Positions 881-7,953 of a stretch of DNA of 10,330 bases are shown here, piece after piece. The position numbers and the translations under genes are program-made. The notes under the pieces were generated by a model. It did no database searches and was not told the origin of the DNA. It saw only the letters and a list, made by a program, of their open reading frames with translations. The stretch is from a virus. Each line of letters starts with the position of its first letter. Positions within the stretch are counted from its first letter, which is position 1. The stretch lies in UHGV virus genome UHGV-1624697; one strand, 5' to 3'.

Positions 881-1504
881 ATGGTTACAGCAGTTACACA
901 TGACGAAGCGGATATCCGTAATGAAGGTATCCTGGCAGAGCGTCAGGCTGAACTGGATACCCTGGCGACGAAGATGCCGAAGCCAATTCCAGGCCGTCCT
1001 CCATATCTGATGGAGAAAGCAACCGGGATTATTCATCCGTTCTCTGATGGACTGGCACAGCGTTCTGACCTTGTGGTGGCATGTTATAACCTGCAAGGGT
1101 CCATGAACCCCGCTGATGCAAATCCTGATTATGATCCGCAGGGTATTACCATCGCCGAAGAACGCCAGCGTCGTCTGCGTGATTTACCGCCGGGGAATGT
1201 GGCGGAGATGAAGGCGTCACTGTCTGACGAGATTGCTGCTATTCGCGCGAAAATGCTGGAAGAGATTGAACTGGAACGCCAGGCAATGCGTGATGATATG
1301 GCTGTTGAGTACGAGTCATTTAAAAAAGAACTGGCGGCGATGCGTGGCGATGTTACAACGGCGAAGGCAGCAAAGAAAAAAGATAAGAGCAAGGCATCTG
1401 AGAAAGCAGTATCAGAACCGGAGACACCAGTTACTGATGCAGCGATTACCGGAACCGGGGAAACCTTTGACACAGCACTGGATAACGCGTTGAAGGATAG
1501 CTGA
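881..1504 (+). CDS. Hypothetical acidic protein (207 aa) with helical/coiled-coil-like central region and Lys-rich segment; possible assembly/scaffold-like or internal virion protein
   Basis: ATG 881 one nt after the upstream stop, with AGGTAGGA upstream; stop TGA 1502-1504. Composition Glu/Asp/Ala/Arg/Lys-rich with heptad-like stretch EIAAIRAKMLEEIELERQAMRDD. Function is inference. Confidence 0.7.
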   Translation: MVTAVTHDEADIRNEGILAERQAELDTLATKMPKPIPGRPPYLMEKATGIIHPFSDGLAQRSDLVVACYNLQGSMNPADANPDYDPQGITIAEERQRRLRDLPPGNVAEMKASLSDEIAAIRAKMLEEIELERQAMRDDMAVEYESFKKELAAMRGDVTTAKAAKKKDKSKASEKAVSEPETPVTDAAITGTGETFDTALDNALKDS

Positions 1505-2196
1505 TGATTACACAGGCACTGGTATTAAGTATATCCGGTGACCTGAATGACAATGAAGACGGCTACCACAATCAGACGTGGAGCGAGCAGCAAATCCGGG
1601 AGTGGGTCGCAGAAGGGGTTAACCTGGTATTCGACAAACGCCCGGATTTGTTTATGGAGAAAAAGGTTATTCCTGTGACTCCATGCAGCGTCATTCAGGA
1701 CACATGCGATTGCGGCGCTATCCGTCGCGTGCTTGGGCACGCCACGAAGGATGGCCGGTTATTGTCGGTAATGCGCAAACAGGGACTGGAGTCCAGCCTC
1801 CAGTGGCGTGGCACGTCGTGTCGTCGGGCAACGGGTAAGTACAAGCCAACCAGTTATGCACTGGATGCGATGACGGATGCATTGTATGTGTGGCCGGAAA
1901 TGCCACCCCATGAAGAGGCGTATATTCTGGTTGAGTGCGCAGTGCGCCCTGATGCGGACAGTATTCAGAGTGAAGTCGACGACGCATATGTGACTGCGGT
2001 TAAGCAGTGGGTGTTATGGCGTGCCAGAAGTATTGATGCGGAAGTCTCGCCAGCGGCTGGGAATGCTGCACAGATGCACTATAAAGCGTTCTTCGACGTG
2101 CTGGGCGTGGCGGAGAAAGCGACGGTTGTATGGCATAGGAGCGAGAAGGATGCCAGTGAACCAAAGGGGTGGCGTAATGCAAACGGTAGTATTTGA
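1504..2196 (+). CDS. Hypothetical protein (230 aa), virion/morphogenesis operon member
   Basis: ATG 1504 overlaps the upstream stop (TGATG), with AAGGA 7 nt upstream; stop TGA 2194-2196. No motif recognised. Confidence 0.7.
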   Translation: MITQALVLSISGDLNDNEDGYHNQTWSEQQIREWVAEGVNLVFDKRPDLFMEKKVIPVTPCSVIQDTCDCGAIRRVLGHATKDGRLLSVMRKQGLESSLQWRGTSCRRATGKYKPTSYALDAMTDALYVWPEMPPHEEAYILVECAVRPDADSIQSEVDDAYVTAVKQWVLWRARSIDAEVSPAAGNAAQMHYKAFFDVLGVAEKATVVWHRSEKDASEPKGWRNANGSI

Positions 2197-2815: not shown

Positions 2816-4083
2816 ATAAATGCCGCAAGACACCGAAGAATGCGCGATGTGCACCTGAGCCTGTGGAGGCTGTGCCACCGCTATGTGACCCGTTCAGTGT
2901 GTGTCTGTCGTTCGGACGTACGCTGTCGTACGATGGCGCGTGCGTAAGGCTGAACGGACAACCTGTTATCCCGGATGGCTGGTACGGCGAGGTGCATGTT
3001 GTCAACGGTTGTATCGTTGATGCGCGGGAAGCCCCGGTGCCGCTGTATACCCCGCCGCCGTGTGCCCCGGCAGCGACTCCATGTGGCGAGGGTGGCGGTG
3101 AAGGCGGCGTTACGTTGTCACCTGATGCAGCTAACCTGAGTCGGCTTATCGGTAATCAACTGATGACGAAGTTGTATCTGGGGCAGAATGAGGGCGTCAC
3201 TGTCACGGGTGATGGCACGCAGAATAACCCGCTAACAATTCGTCTAGTCGCCGGAGATGGCGACGGTATTTTCATGACGTCTGGTTCGCCGGATGCACTG
3301 ACTATTTCGGGTAGTGGTGAACAGGCAGACCCATTTATCCTGAAACTGACTAACAGTCCGTTAGGTGCAGGGACGTTCGGGGCACTGGAACTGGACAGTC
3401 TTGGCAGAGTTGTCGGGTATAATGAGGATGCCGGGGGTGACGCCCTGCGGCAGCTTATCGATGGTAACGGTACTAAGGGTGTCACTGTCGGGCCGGGTGT
3501 TGGCCGTATAGACCTGGAAGAAGTGGAGGGCGTTAAGGGTAGTTACACAATGGGTGGCTACTCGTTATCTGTGGATGATACCGGACGTGTGGAGGGTGTG
3601 AAGCGCGGCATCACACTGACTGCTGGCACATACACGCTGGGTAATTACAGAGTGACGATTAATGCCTATGGGTCCATCACTAAGCTGGAGAAGGTTACTG
3701 TTCCGGTAGAGCCGAATGTGTTTGTCGCGCAATACGCAGCAGGAGAGCCAAGTCAGGCTGCTGTGATGAGTTTCACCACGGAAGTACCTGGTCGGCTGCA
3801 TATTGAGTATATCGGGTATCTCGGAACGGCCACCGCACAGACACCGGGACTGGCAGAGAATGTTACAGGAACAGCTATCGCAGTGGACGGGAGTGATGTG
3901 CCGCGTGTACTGACCACGCTGATGCCGTCGGGAACGCCGGGAACGATGGTCAGCACCGGAGTACGTGGTATCACACCAGGCATTATCCCGGCAGGGCCGC
4001 ATACCGTTGCGGTGCGTGGACCGGAGATTATGGGGCAACATGCCGCAATTCTTAAGTGTACGGTGGTCGGGGTCGGCACATGA
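2812..4083 (+). CDS. Hypothetical virion protein (423 aa): Cys-rich N-terminus (8 Cys in the first ~91 aa) followed by a Gly/Thr/Val-rich beta-rich region; candidate fibre/spike or receptor-binding protein
   Basis: ATG 2812 overlaps the upstream stop (ATGA); stop TGA 4081-4083. Composition and repeated G-x-G/GDG stretches resemble fibre/spike proteins; this is inference, not homology. Confidence 0.75.
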   Translation: MNKCRKTPKNARCAPEPVEAVPPLCDPFSVCLSFGRTLSYDGACVRLNGQPVIPDGWYGEVHVVNGCIVDAREAPVPLYTPPPCAPAATPCGEGGGEGGVTLSPDAANLSRLIGNQLMTKLYLGQNEGVTVTGDGTQNNPLTIRLVAGDGDGIFMTSGSPDALTISGSGEQADPFILKLTNSPLGAGTFGALELDSLGRVVGYNEDAGGDALRQLIDGNGTKGVTVGPGVGRIDLEEVEGVKGSYTMGGYSLSVDDTGRVEGVKRGITLTAGTYTLGNYRVTINAYGSITKLEKVTVPVEPNVFVAQYAAGEPSQAAVMSFTTEVPGRLHIEYIGYLGTATAQTPGLAENVTGTAIAVDGSDVPRVLTTLMPSGTPGTMVSTGVRGITPGIIPAGPHTVAVRGPEIMGQHAAILKCTVVGVGT

Positions 4084-5702
4084 TACTGAAAGGGTTTAAG
4101 GGCATATCACCACGTACGCCGGAGCATATGCTTGGCGAAGGTATGGCGACGGTGGCCCGTGATGTGAATTTGCAGCATGGGACGCTTCGGCCGTGGCGGG
4201 AGCCGCGCTTTGTCACGCAGCTACCGGACACAACACTGACGGTTGAAGCGTATGGTTGTTGTTATTTCGCGTGGGATAGTTGCGTCTCTGTCGCACGATG
4301 GCTGCCGGATGTGCCACGGTTGTACCTGACAGGACGTTCGCCATATCCGGAAGTGGCTGCCATTGGTAAAGACTGTACACTGGACTATGCCAGACTTGGC
4401 GTGCCAGCGCCAGATACCACACCGCTGGTCGCATACATTACGGTACCGGATAAGAATATTGAGACGGCATTCAGGACGTATGTGTTCACGTATGTGAACT
4501 GGTTGTCGGAAGAGAGTGCGCCCAGTTATCCTGGTACAGAACTGGCGGTTAATGACGGGCAGTCTGTGACGGTGTCTGGCTGGGAGGCGCAGCCTGCGGA
4601 ATACCGGGTGCAGAAGGTCCGTATCTACCGGAGGACGACGGGGTTGCGGTCCGGTGCCGAGGAAGAGCAGAATATCATCACGGAATACCTGCTGGTTGAC
4701 GAGATTGATATCACGCAGAAGACCTATGTGGATACCCGTAAGGATATGGACCTGGGCTGGCAGTTACCGACACGTGAGGTCCGGGAGCCTCCTGCGGGGC
4801 TACGGGGGATTCTGGCAATTGACGGTACGTCCGTACTGGCAGGTTTTGTCGGGAACCGTCTGTTGTTCACGAAGAACGGACAGCCGTGGAACTGGCCGCT
4901 GGCGCTTGAGATGACGCTGGATGACAACATCGTTCATATTGCGCAGGATGACGGTAACCTGTTTGTATCCACCACGGGGCGGTCATATGTGGTGGACGCG
5001 TCACTGGTCTGCGATGAGCGCCCGTGTCGTTCCGTGGTACAGGCGGATTATCCGATGCCGGACATAGGATGCGGCTATGCGCATTCCGCAATTATGACGC
5101 CGTTCGGTATGGTATATGCCAGCACCGATGGTCTGGTACTGCTGAACCAGTCGCAGCCTACCCGGCTTCTGACAGAAGGTGTTCTTGCCGCTGATGACTG
5201 GATTAAGCTGCGACCGGAAACCACACGACTGGCATACTATAAGGGTTATCTGTTTTGCGTGACAGATGCAGTGTCGTTTATGTTATTGCTGGACACGCAG
5301 TCATACAGTGTTGCGGCACAGGTTGCTGCAATGAGCACGTTCTCGGATACGCCAGTGGATATGGTGCTTAGTGATTCCGGTGAATTACTGATGCTGGATG
5401 ACGAGGGCAAACTACACCAGTGGAATGCCGGGGATAAACTACGACCATATCTGTGGGTCAGCGGGGTTATCATGACAGGCTTTCAGAGCTGGTTACCTGT
5501 GGCACAGATAGGTGTGGATGGCACGGTTACATACACGATTAAGTCGGGGCCGTATAAAGTGTATTCGCGTCCTGTCGCGCACAACCGTCCGTTCCGCACA
5601 CGGCGATTAATGCGCAATACAGAACACCGCATTATCCTGGAAGGCACGGGCGAGGTACGCTGGTTGCGGCTGGGTGCGACGATGCAGGAAGCGGTTAAGT
5701 GA
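4080..5702 (+). CDS. Hypothetical large virion protein (540 aa)
   Basis: Preferred start ATG 4080 overlaps the upstream stop (ATGA, MILKGFKG...); the track's 4056 start is an upstream extension. Stop TGA 5700-5702. Longest ORF in the window; no motif recognised. Confidence 0.75.
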   Translation: MILKGFKGISPRTPEHMLGEGMATVARDVNLQHGTLRPWREPRFVTQLPDTTLTVEAYGCCYFAWDSCVSVARWLPDVPRLYLTGRSPYPEVAAIGKDCTLDYARLGVPAPDTTPLVAYITVPDKNIETAFRTYVFTYVNWLSEESAPSYPGTELAVNDGQSVTVSGWEAQPAEYRVQKVRIYRRTTGLRSGAEEEQNIITEYLLVDEIDITQKTYVDTRKDMDLGWQLPTREVREPPAGLRGILAIDGTSVLAGFVGNRLLFTKNGQPWNWPLALEMTLDDNIVHIAQDDGNLFVSTTGRSYVVDASLVCDERPCRSVVQADYPMPDIGCGYAHSAIMTPFGMVYASTDGLVLLNQSQPTRLLTEGVLAADDWIKLRPETTRLAYYKGYLFCVTDAVSFMLLLDTQSYSVAAQVAAMSTFSDTPVDMVLSDSGELLMLDDEGKLHQWNAGDKLRPYLWVSGVIMTGFQSWLPVAQIGVDGTVTYTIKSGPYKVYSRPVAHNRPFRTRRLMRNTEHRIILEGTGEVRWLRLGATMQEAVK

Positions 5703-5706
5703 GGGG

Positions 5707-6162
5707 ATGATGGCAAGTTGTAAGATTATGCAGTATCCGAAGACTGCGGATGAGATGGAGCGGTTTTTCACGAAAGTGATTGGTCCGTTACTGGTGCGGC
5801 ACTGGTCGGAGGAAGACCAGCGCACCGGGCAGCCACACGGTTTGGATGTTCCGGCGTTCCTTGCAGCATGGGAGCAGCGGGGTGTTATGGTTATTATGGC
5901 GTTTGAAGGCGACACGCCTGTGGGCTTTATGTTCGTTTACGTGTTCCGTCCGTTGTTTCTGGCGGGTACAGTAATGCAGGTTGAGCGCTGGCACGCAGAG
6001 CATGATGGCGTGGATAAGGAGATGTTTGACTATCTGTCTGCGATAGCGCCAGCGATGGGCATTAACCACATTCATGCGATAGCCTGTGACGCGCGCCCTG
6101 TACCGGAGGGCATTGAGACAGATGCCGCAGACAGTTATCAGATGGTGAAACTGGTGGTGTGA
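5707..6162 (+). CDS. Hypothetical protein (151 aa)
   Basis: Preferred start ATG 5707 (or 5710), immediately after the upstream stop, with AAGTGAGGGG upstream; the track's 5674 start overlaps the previous gene. Stop TGA 6160-6162. No motif recognised. Confidence 0.6.
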   Translation: MMASCKIMQYPKTADEMERFFTKVIGPLLVRHWSEEDQRTGQPHGLDVPAFLAAWEQRGVMVIMAFEGDTPVGFMFVYVFRPLFLAGTVMQVERWHAEHDGVDKEMFDYLSAIAPAMGINHIHAIACDARPVPEGIETDAADSYQMVKLVV

Positions 6163-6163
6163 T

Positions 6164-6979
6164 ATGGCAGACGAAGAAGAACTCGCACCGGAAGGTGAAG
6201 AAGGCGCAGAGGGCGAAGAAGAGGTTGCGGCAAGCGAGCCGGGAAAAGGTGTGACTGATGACGGCCTCACATGGTCTGCGCGCATTGCGCAGATAGCTGC
6301 TATTGCCGTGGCGGTCATTAACACTAAGGCCGCCATTGATATCGCTAAAAAGCAGGAGAAGATGGCGAAGAAGTACCTGCAAATGGCGAAGGAGCGGCAG
6401 CAGTATTACTACGACGTCTATGTGCCTTGCGAGAATACAGAGATTCAGGAAGCCTGTAGTGCTGAACTGTATGAGATGCACAAGGATGTACAGGTCGGTC
6501 GTGCGAAGGCATCGGTGCGGCATGAACTGACCGGGAAGACGGAACGTGAGTTGCAGTGTATCAGCCGTTACTGTACAGGTAAGCGCGCTGCAATTGTCCG
6601 TGACCGTGAAGTGGAAGAGGCTACGGCGCTGGCGTTGTCTGCGAACTTTGCACGCAGGTATGAAGAGAAGATTAAGGATGCCCGTGACGATACCCGCTGG
6701 GCACGACGGGCAGAAGCCCTGAATCGCGGTCGTGACATTATGGCACGGGCACAGACGTTCAGTGGTTTCGCTATGGGTATGTTCGGGCGTCTCGGGGAGC
6801 AGGCAGCGAATGCCGCAGCGGGGGCAATGGGGTATCTCGGATATTCAATGGAGCGTCGGGAAATGCAGCCACGTGAGCCGTTGAAACGTCCGCAGCGTAT
6901 GGGTATCTCGTATCCGTTACCGTCGCCGGAACTGGAGGTGATACCGCCGAAACCGCAACCTGTTAAAGTTCTTGGCTAA
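6164..6979 (+). CDS. Hypothetical protein (271 aa), paralog A of a tandem pair; highly acidic Glu-rich N-terminus, amphipathic hydrophobic segment, conserved PCE...EACSA and NFARRYEE...RDD.RW.RR...LNRGR blocks
   Basis: ATG 6164 one nt after the upstream stop; stop TAA 6977-6979. By-eye alignment with the next ORF shows several colinear conserved blocks. Confidence 0.8.
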   Translation: MADEEELAPEGEEGAEGEEEVAASEPGKGVTDDGLTWSARIAQIAAIAVAVINTKAAIDIAKKQEKMAKKYLQMAKERQQYYYDVYVPCENTEIQEACSAELYEMHKDVQVGRAKASVRHELTGKTERELQCISRYCTGKRAAIVRDREVEEATALALSANFARRYEEKIKDARDDTRWARRAEALNRGRDIMARAQTFSGFAMGMFGRLGEQAANAAAGAMGYLGYSMERREMQPREPLKRPQRMGISYPLPSPELEVIPPKPQPVKVLG

Positions 6980-6993
6980 GGGAGCGCGACATT

Positions 6994-7953
6994 ATGGCCG
7001 CATGTGCTATGGCGATGGGTAACTGGGATACCGGGATGGTGAAGTCTCAGGAAGTGAAAACGGAATCCATTGAAAAGATTGAGAACTTCCTGGGTATGTC
7101 GAAGAAGAACGGTGGCGAGGATGGCTTCTGGCCCGAGCCGCAGGTCACTGATACCGGGGTAAAAAGTAATGCCAAATGGGCGCGACTTGCGGCAGTTGCT
7201 GTTGCCACGTTTAACACGCTGGCGATGATTGATATTGCCGAAAAACAGCTTGGCATTGCGGAAGACTATTACAAGATGGCACGCCGGGACTGGGACCGTT
7301 TCAGGGAAATCTTCGAACCCTGCGAGCGAAAGGAAGTTGCGGAAGCGTGCAGCGCGCCACTGTATGACCCGAAACATGACCAGCAGGCGGCAGATTATAT
7401 GAACGAGGTTGACCGCACGTTTGGCATGGCAGAACGACGCATTCATGACCTGTACGGACGGTATGGCATATGTCCTGACCCGTCGCTCAATCGTGATGTG
7501 GCGCTGGCGCGGTCACAGGTGGCGGGTGATTCCGGTAACTTCGCATACCGCTATGAAGAGGGGCGTCAGATTGCGCGTGATGATGTTCGCTGGAATCGTC
7601 GACAGCAGGTGCTGAACCGTGGGCGAAACATCCCGACAGATGCTGTCCGGTATGCAGAGGCAGCAGCGGATGCATTTAACAATCAGGGCAAGATGTTAGG
7701 TAATGCCGCACAGGGTGCGATGAAGGCGTTGGGGTATTTTTCAACACGTAATGAGACACGGTATCCGCAGGGGCGGCGTGACCGCCGGAACAGCCCGTAT
7801 CTGGTCGGGCAGCCAGAGAATGGCGTGTTTGGTTTTATTAGTTCTTCACCTGCATATATCGGCGGTGGCGGGGGGATGGAGTCGGTCTGGTATACAGGGC
7901 ATGATTCCATCGGTAGTAATATCGGGTCGCAGAATCCGGGTACGGGGGTGTGA
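6994..7953 (+). CDS. Hypothetical protein (319 aa), paralog B of the tandem pair, with a Gly/Ser-rich C-terminal tail
   Basis: ATG 6994 with AAGGGAG 8 nt upstream; stop TGA 7951-7953. Shares VTD.G, AA.AVA..NT.A.IDIA.KQ, PCE..E..EACSA.LY, NFAYRYEE...ARDDVRW.RR...LNRGR and GNAA.GAM..LGY blocks with the preceding ORF. Confidence 0.8.
   Translation: MAACAMAMGNWDTGMVKSQEVKTESIEKIENFLGMSKKNGGEDGFWPEPQVTDTGVKSNAKWARLAAVAVATFNTLAMIDIAEKQLGIAEDYYKMARRDWDRFREIFEPCERKEVAEACSAPLYDPKHDQQAADYMNEVDRTFGMAERRIHDLYGRYGICPDPSLNRDVALARSQVAGDSGNFAYRYEEGRQIARDDVRWNRRQQVLNRGRNIPTDAVRYAEAAADAFNNQGKMLGNAAQGAMKALGYFSTRNETRYPQGRRDRRNSPYLVGQPENGVFGFISSSPAYIGGGGGMESVWYTGHDSIGSNIGSQNPGTGV

Follow-up and report, generated by a model that had tools for sequence, protein, structure and literature searches.

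We analysed a 10,330-nucleotide stretch of the virus genome UHGV-1624697 (the window), and in particular two neighbouring genes, called A and B here, which encode proteins of 271 and 319 amino acids (aa). The two proteins are paralogues, with a similarity far above chance, and the window is the virion module of a podophage of the GP4/Bcep22/phi24B type. We favour, with some reserve, a reading in which the two form an old and stably kept pair of internal virion (ejection or pilot) proteins, located in the genome as T7 gp14 is in T7. The reasons are the synteny, the presence of remote homologues in virions, and a gene layout like that of known ejection operons.

Both open reading frames (ORFs) were found at exactly the coordinates given in an earlier description of the same DNA, the original prediction, and on the plus strand, Table 1. 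The larger ORFs of the window all lie on this strand. The ATG of A is located one base past the stop codon of the preceding gene, and the gap of 14 nucleotides between A and B contains a GGGAG ribosome-binding site for B. In a BLASTP comparison with composition-based statistics, A and B align over 232 residues with 4 gaps, 39% of the residues being identical and 52% positives, at an E-value of 3e-43, i.e. the shared motifs from which the original prediction started are not chance matches. It had described four colinear blocks (AA.AVA..NT.A.IDIA.KQ, PCE..E..EACSA.LY, NFA.RYEE...ARDD.RW.RR...LNRGR and NAA.GAM..LGY), all four of which are seen in the alignment. Also the differing termini are as described, A has an acidic N-terminus and B a Gly/Ser-rich C-terminus.

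According to their profile matches, both proteins belong to PHROG 37635, which is annotated as 'unknown function'. The match covers residues 25-225 of A (E-value 4.5e-35) and residues 49-247 of B (5.2e-34), and the same PHROG matches the single-copy protein of locus L012 (9.5e-62) and the pair of locus L005. We found 37 close homologues of A and 22 of B. A profile of A and B searched against 1.84 billion proteins gave 620 clusters (50% identity representatives) with an E-value of 1e-3 or lower, and nearly all of the best 150 of the 620 clusters have lengths of 200-350 aa. Neither protein, alone or as a profile, has a match in Pfam, in NCBIfam or among the PDB sequences, and the family had not been recognised in the original prediction either.

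To describe the history of the two copies, 145 distant representatives were typed with separate A-type and B-type hidden Markov models (HMMs): 73 score better with the A model and 72 with the B model. The score difference is bimodal, with about 20 intermediates among the 145. A neighbour-joining tree of 187 near-full-length members contains one clade of 88 sequences that are all A-type, another of 72 that are all B-type, and a central group with most of the intermediates; it has no bootstrap values, its internal branches are short, and tree and HMM typing are not independent.

In every two-copy locus inspected, both ORFs are intact and the A-type gene precedes the B-type gene. The two are adjacent in the window clade and in three IMG/VR loci. 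The loci L013 and L014, from distant metagenomic phages, have the order nozzle, a protein of about 150 aa, A-type, B-type, and in L005 a bona fide PF00583 GNAT gene (8928-9392) is located between the A-type and the B-type gene, whose products are 32% identical (E-value 7e-32). Four related loci (L012, L017, L018 and L019) have a single copy of intermediate type at the equivalent position. Upstream of the single copy are the nozzle and GNAT genes, adjacent in three of the four loci and with five small genes intervening in L018, and downstream of it follow a protein of 477-684 aa, an SLT or other gene of about 230-320 aa, and the giant protein. Because of the roughly 1:1 split between A-types and B-types, the pure clades and the fixed order across deep divergence, the sequences indicate that the duplication is old and that both copies have been retained in fixed order; single-copy lineages exist. 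The old in-situ duplication of the original prediction is therefore well supported. We found no earlier description of the split of the family into A-type, B-type and single-copy subfamilies.

Remote homologues come from PHROG 8003 ('virion structural protein'), which in hmmscan matches B with an E-value of 2.7e-8 and A with 2.9e-4. They link the pair to CHARACTERISED phages: Skulduggery gp25, Bcep22 gp70 and GP4 gp71, all from PHROG 8003, match A and B over the tip and the return helix of the predicted hairpin described below. Members of PHROG 8003 are found with the A/B family by BLASTP (E-value 3e-5) and by hmmsearch (4.8e-8 and 8.5e-7, on a very small database), and hhalign aligns the two families over 121 columns with a probability of 83.7% and an E-value of 8e-6. 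A Foldseek search of BFVD gives the SopranoGao homologue with probability 1.00 and E-value 2e-3. The motifs Y-K-x-x-F/Y-x-P-x-E and R-x-x-A-L/I-N-x-G are shared by the two families. A GNAT gene directly precedes those of Skulduggery gp25, Bcep22 gp70 and GP4 gp71, which lie between the genes of the nozzle and of a giant DarB-like protein; the gene order in the window matches. Taken together, this is probably a link at the superfamily level, strengthened by synteny, and not membership of A and B in PHROG 8003. A very weak match of A to PHROG 21132 ('DNA ejection') was also seen.

Proteins of this wider group have been detected in virions. JC1 gp64, a homologue of Bcep22 gp70 and also from PHROG 8003, is among the best-scoring virion proteins of its phage, where 9 unique peptides cover 45% of it (PMC9144972). 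For phi24B gp51 (vb_24B_44, 218 aa, PHROG 611) there are 523 peptide-spectrum matches in the proteome of the virion, and this protein matches PHROG 8003 with an E-value of 2.2e-9 in hmmscan and a probability of 94% in hhalign. The A/B profile has no direct match in phi24B. The tail model in the phi24B preprint consists of the portal, two adaptors, the nozzle, lateral fibres and the needle gp56, and gp51 is not part of it. For GP4 gp71 we found no PDB chain, although the GP4 nozzle has been deposited. The suggestion of the original prediction that the pair is internal or ejected is thus supported indirectly, by synteny, by remote homologues identified in virions by mass spectrometry, and by homologues missing from solved tail structures.

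The gene layout points in the same direction. A canonical podophage ejection operon encodes a small protein that forms an outer-membrane pore (gp14 in T7, gp7 in P22), a medium protein that forms the periplasmic tunnel, and a large protein plus a cell-wall hydrolase (PMC8954989). Here, the corresponding series consists of A and B, a 247-aa protein, a lysozyme or SLT protein and a protein of 2100-2900 aa. A and B would take the slot of the small first protein in this series. They may be packaged with the DNA near the portal and the tail lumen, leave through the nozzle before the DNA, and then oligomerise, probably into a mixed A/B assembly. The open ends of the hairpins would insert into the envelope, so that A and B build the first, outer-membrane-proximal section of a trans-envelope conduit, which the 247-aa protein, the lysozyme and the giant polyvalent protein would extend and service. 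Packaging in the window phage, ejection, hetero-oligomerisation and membrane insertion are all steps that we infer; it is plausible that A and B are two subunits of one ejection or membrane complex.

The next protein of the operon differs in length between the two kinds of phages. In the window it is 247 aa long, while its counterparts have 192-338 aa in the other two-copy phages and 477-684 aa in the single-copy phages, where N-terminal similarity is found only for the 477-aa and 684-aa members. BLASTP indicates that the first 60-90 residues are conserved (L014_338, E-value 1.4e-11; L012_477, 2.3e-11; L005_200, 3.8e-7). The combined length of the hairpin protein or proteins and the next protein is roughly constant, in a small sample of four against four loci. 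This length pattern is the support for a broader version of the ejection reading, which is tentative and on the whole rather unlikely: the hairpin family would be a so far unrecognised class of ejectosome subunits for the whole supergroup of GP4, Bcep22 and Shiga-toxin (Stx) T=9 podophages, and one large branch would have evolved, by the duplication, an obligate A/B channel in which B took over a part of the periplasmic-tunnel function.

AlphaFold2 (AF2) models built from family alignments predict that A and B are each a long antiparallel alpha-helical hairpin with disordered termini. In the model of A, a helix at residues 32-99 is followed by short tip helices (107-131) and a return helix (138-230), with a predicted local distance difference test score (pLDDT) of 72 and a predicted TM-score (pTM) of 0.44. 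The helices of B are located at residues 54-119, 128-157, 163-208 and 212-245 (pLDDT 61, pTM 0.36), and the pLDDT of B is above 90 around the tip, roughly residues 120-200. The helix order is the same in the two models.

Each protein contains one marginal hydrophobic segment, with a Kyte-Doolittle value of 1.5-1.6, and one charge-poor Gly/Ala-rich segment. In A, the family-averaged hydropathy of residues 36-60 is about 1.5 with 4-8% charged residues, and the best 19-residue window scores 1.59. According to the model, this segment and the charge-poor segment at residues 191-227 would be paired where the hairpin is open, with a highly charged middle and tip; the family-averaged stretch between them contains 30-50% charged residues.

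The conserved residues are concentrated in the tip and the return helix. E90 (A numbering) is invariant in 185 of the 187 family sequences and P88 is near-invariant. In the block at residues 161-190, R165, D176, R178, W179, G189 and R190 are invariant or near-invariant, and this block and the P-x-E block carry the remote match to Bcep22 gp70. In the motif PCE..E..EAC, the cysteines are residues 89 and 98 of A (6428-6430 and 6455-6457 in the window) and residues 110 and 119 of B. They co-vary over the 187 members, 77 of which have both, 103 neither and 7 only one (Fisher p about 2e-43), and in part of the family they may thus form a disulfide or act together as ligands. We considered and rejected a metal site made by four cysteines at the tip, as Cys89 and Cys98 are replaced by Leu or Val in more than half of the family and are thus not essential. 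Cys132 is specific to the A-types, being present in 77 of 92, and the B-types have a Leu at this position. Since each type has its own conserved residues, diverged roles and the subfunctionalisation proposed in the original prediction are plausible from the sequences; the features in question are C132xxxxC137 of the A-types against Leu132 of the B-types, the N-terminal extension of B and its Gly/Ser tail. The acidic extension of A is confined to its closest relatives, most A-types begin straight at MA..G(I/V)TDxG. The repeat GAAGGCGAA (3.4 copies in A) is a recent slippage-type expansion limited to these closest relatives. In nearly all proteins of the family, the residue after the initial Met is a small one.

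Several points weigh against an ejection role. The tie to proteins verified by mass spectrometry is remote (84% in hhalign), and the tie to phi24B gp51 is transitive. Virion presence is known for the relatives JC1 gp64 and phi24B gp51, and we infer it for the window phage. The AF2 models are of single chains and their confidence is moderate, as seen from the pLDDT and pTM values above. The hydrophobic segment is marginal as a transmembrane helix, one segment in each protein, unlike the four to five transmembrane helices predicted in gp14-like proteins. Further, neither in sequence nor in fold are A and B significantly similar to gp14, gp7 or gp11 proteins. Finally, Skulduggery gp25 (11972-13135 in L001), SopranoGao, Parlo and other members of PHROG 8003 have a C-terminal Peptidase_S74 intramolecular-chaperone domain (E-value 1.9e-8). 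Such a domain is unexpected for an internal protein, and its presence implies that at least the C-terminal part of these relatives trimerises. Peptidase_S74 is typical of trimeric fibres, and a role outside the particle or as a needle would be at least equally compatible with it.

We therefore considered that A, B or both form a distal tail needle, a plug or a short fibre in the nozzle, as trimeric coiled-coil bundles like P22 gp26 and phi24B gp56. The genes of A and B come soon after that of the nozzle, and this is the place of the needle gene (gp56) in phi24B. Pfam and PHROG scans of the window recognise no other gene that is obviously a needle gene, and the long helices of A and B could make a six-helix bundle. 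The relatives that end in Peptidase_S74 are also sometimes annotated as 'tail fiber domain-containing'. However, phi24B has both the needle gp56 and the remote family member gp51 as distinct proteins, and none of the GP4 chains that have been deposited is gp71. Neither the sequence nor the fold of A and B matches P22 gp26 or any needle in the PDB. A and B have no S74 domain, beta-prism or beta-helix, no beta-rich C-terminal domain is predicted for them, and a hydrophobic hairpin end of small residues together with disordered termini would be unusual in a needle. GP4 gp73 and Bcep22 gp68 were sought in the PDB as the GP4 needle, and nothing was found. We consider a needle improbable.

Also unlikely, in our estimate, is that A and B are accessory proteins inside the head, which mainly recruit the giant polyvalent (DarB/LPD-type) protein and the DNA, or give them order or stability, in the manner of DarA and Hdf and do not form a channel. 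Hdf is a homologue of a fragment of DarA. It is in line with such a role that the paralogous pair shares its operon with a 2318-aa LPD38 polyvalent protein. In phage P1, 55 DarA-Hdf pairs are located on the inside of the capsid and leave with the DNA (PMC12810830), and the authors of the JC1 study expected analogues of the Dar accessory proteins among the Bcep22-like virion proteins (PMC9144972). The analogy is attractive, but no search gave any similarity to support it. That one copy is redundant or decaying after a neutral tandem duplication is very improbable: single-copy relatives, presumably functional, exist, but both types are kept at about 1:1 across lineages that have diverged to about 30% identity, with both ORFs intact at every two-copy locus inspected and with conserved residues and terminal extensions of their own.

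Table 1. Coordinates of the two paralogous genes, of segments within A, and of the neighbouring genes in the 10,330-nucleotide window.
Feature	Coordinates	Strand	Basis
Paralogue A, 271 aa, A-type hairpin protein	6164-6979	+	ORF; phrog_37635 match
Tandem repeat of 9 bp, GAAGGCGAA x3.4, coding for the (E-G-E)n part of the acidic N-terminal extension of A	6191-6221	+	Tandem Repeats Finder
A residues 36-60, conserved first part of helix 1, hydrophobic and rich in Ala/Val, which may interact with the membrane	6269-6343	+	Family-averaged composition
A residues 88-137, hairpin tip with P-C-E motif, Cys89/Cys98 pair and A-type CxxxxC (C132, C137)	6425-6574	+	Family conservation
A residues 161-190, most conserved block NFA.RYEE...DD.RW.RR..LNRGR, in the return helix	6644-6733	+	Invariant or near-invariant residues
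A residues 191-227, charge-poor Gly/Ala/Ser-rich end of the return helix	6734-6844	+	45-55% A/G/S, 7-15% charged, family-averaged
Paralogue B, 319 aa, B-type hairpin protein with N-terminal extension of about 50 residues and disordered Gly/Ser-rich C-terminus	6994-7953	+	ORF
SU10-type adaptor	1504-2196	+	Only window protein recognised by Pfam
Hexameric tail nozzle protein, 548 aa, last tail-body gene upstream of the pair	4056-5702	+	PDB 8jov_A; phrog_511, E-value 1.7e-90
GNAT-like gene, 150 aa, conserved upstream partner of the hairpin gene(s)	5710-6162	+	Homology to the L012 acetyltransferase
136-aa HExxH protein	7957-8367	+	phrog_1365, E-value 7.9e-23; HECAH motif in the translation
247-aa protein after the hairpin genes	8367-9110	+	N-terminal conservation
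Virion-module lysozyme, 228 aa from the ATG at 9112	9112-9798	+	phrog_17230, E-value 2.1e-48; phrog_90, E-value 1.6e-37

The module consists of the adaptor, a second adaptor-like protein, a 423-aa fibre candidate (no relative in the PDB), the nozzle, the 150-aa GNAT-like protein, A and B, followed by the 136-aa HExxH protein, the 247-aa protein and the lysozyme; in the closest relatives the giant polyvalent protein comes next. The pair is thus located, as the original prediction had it, in the middle of a virion operon; the nozzle lies upstream and the lysozyme downstream. The nozzle protein matches PDB 8jov_A (577 aa, 6 chains, 'Virion-associated phage protein') in phmmer with an E-value of 1.3e-34, and its relatives are found in Stx2 phages, in phages of Vibrio, Ralstonia and Burkholderia, and in the Pseudomonas phage Skulduggery. 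According to the phi24B preprint, gp57, the homologue of the window nozzle, is a hexameric nozzle with 29% identity to that of GP4.

The 150-aa protein upstream of A is similar to the PF00583 acetyltransferase at the equivalent position in L012 (BLASTP, E-value 3e-8). It has no Pfam match at an E-value of 0.1 or lower, and the acetyl-CoA motif R/Q-x-x-G-x-G/A is not found in it; in the alignment, RGRG of L012 corresponds to HDGV. As both the Pfam signal and the RGRG cofactor motif have been lost despite the homology, the protein is probably a catalytically degenerate GNAT. The Pfam GNAT signal has also been lost in the other two-copy lineages (L005, 153 aa; L013; L014) and is mostly kept in the single-copy lineages. 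In Bcep22, GP4 and Skulduggery a GNAT gene is located directly upstream of the remote homologue. The idea that the adjacent GNAT N-acetylates A and B is weak for the window phage, where the cofactor motif and the Pfam signal are gone. A duplication of a two-gene cassette, GNAT plus hairpin, to which the order GNAT-like, A, GNAT, B in L005 had pointed, is not supported, since the two GNAT-type genes of L005 have no detectable similarity (E-value 0.29); the second one may be an insertion.

The 136-aa protein contains the motif LVHECAHAAFH and has a weak match to TIGR04267 HExxH (E-value 0.087), and may be a small metallopeptidase within the module of internal proteins. It was not seen at the equivalent position in the distant loci L005, L013 and L014. 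In the 247-aa protein there is a (Thr-Gly)n linker, which 4.3 copies of ACTGGT at 8892-8917 code for. If the lysozyme ORF is taken to start at 9082, it overlaps with the last part of the gene before it; in L002-L004 it is called with 228 aa, as expected for a start at the ATG at 9112, right past the upstream stop codon. In the same three loci, the gene of the 2318-aa polyvalent protein (12822-19778) follows downstream of the window, after the lysozyme, and then a holin gene. LPD38 is recognised in the polyvalent protein, along with a weak YkuD (L,D-transpeptidase-like) match. This polyvalent protein is equivalent to phi24B gp47 and to the DarB-like proteins of Bcep22 and GP4. In the phi24B preprint gp47 is proposed to be an ejection protein.

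Identical or near-identical A and B proteins are found on contigs of 48-63 kb from E. coli samples (few assemblies, such as GCA_043584025.1). Nucleotide and translated searches of 50,697 phage records (INPHARED) with the window, B and P0022 gave no match, the element is not present in 5,426 complete E. coli genomes, and it was not found in a pattern scan of the GTDB species representatives. Only 3 loci were found in IMG/VR.

To our knowledge, the ejection proteins of podophages are structurally understood only for T7-like, P22-like and N4-like phages. For the Shiga-toxin phages (phi24B, 933W), the Bcep22-like phages of Burkholderia and the GP4-like phages of Ralstonia, we know of solved tails and of no assignment of the injection machinery besides the proposal for the giant polyvalent protein. 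The A/B family is a concrete candidate for the small first component of this machinery, and the analysis joins PHROGs 37635, 8003 and 611 into one probable superfamily. With two diverged copies in a fixed order across deep divergence, a heteromeric assembly can be predicted and tested. Present ideas on how phages infect remain unchanged by this, and the function of A and B is a candidate reading. In our best reading the family is uncharacterised, yet functionally of a known sort, namely the internal or ejection proteins of podophages.

Among known systems, the PHROG 8003 proteins resemble A and B in their position after a GNAT gene and, by remote homology, in the tip and return helix; they have been detected in virions by mass spectrometry. 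Unlike A and B, they are single copy, and the identity is about 23% over some 120-145 aligned residues. Bcep22 gp70 differs further by an N-terminal transmembrane or signal-like segment and the Skulduggery-type members by the C-terminal Peptidase_S74 domain, whereas the N-terminal Ala/Val-rich helix and the Cys motifs of A and B are not found in PHROG 8003. phi24B gp51 is likewise encoded in a module between the nozzle and needle genes and the giant gp47, but it is shorter, single copy and has no detectable GNAT alongside.

T7 gp14 and P22 gp7 resemble A and B in being all-helical, the first and smallest proteins of their operon, and expected to be packaged and ejected first (PMC8954989). The gp14-like proteins have about 180-240 aa and are single copy, whereas A and B are larger and duplicated. 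There is a weak structural resemblance of A and B to models of 'internal virion protein B' (E-value 0.15-0.25). DarA and Hdf of P1 are, like A and B, paired proteins tied to a giant DarB-type protein, and they are located inside the head and lost on ejection; they differ in fold, in coming from a myophage and in their capsid-lining role, and no search gave any similarity. In N4, DEV and other phages, alpha-helical hairpin ejection proteins surround the portal in full particles and are gone from empty ones (PMC13434306). N4 gp51 and DEV gp72 are larger tunnel proteins that form 9-10-mers, with no sequence relationship detected; the helical hairpin and a gene beside that of a giant ejected protein are what they have in common with A and B, by analogy only. 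A two-component channel of A and B would be comparable in its logic to the bipartite and tripartite alpha-pore-forming toxins.

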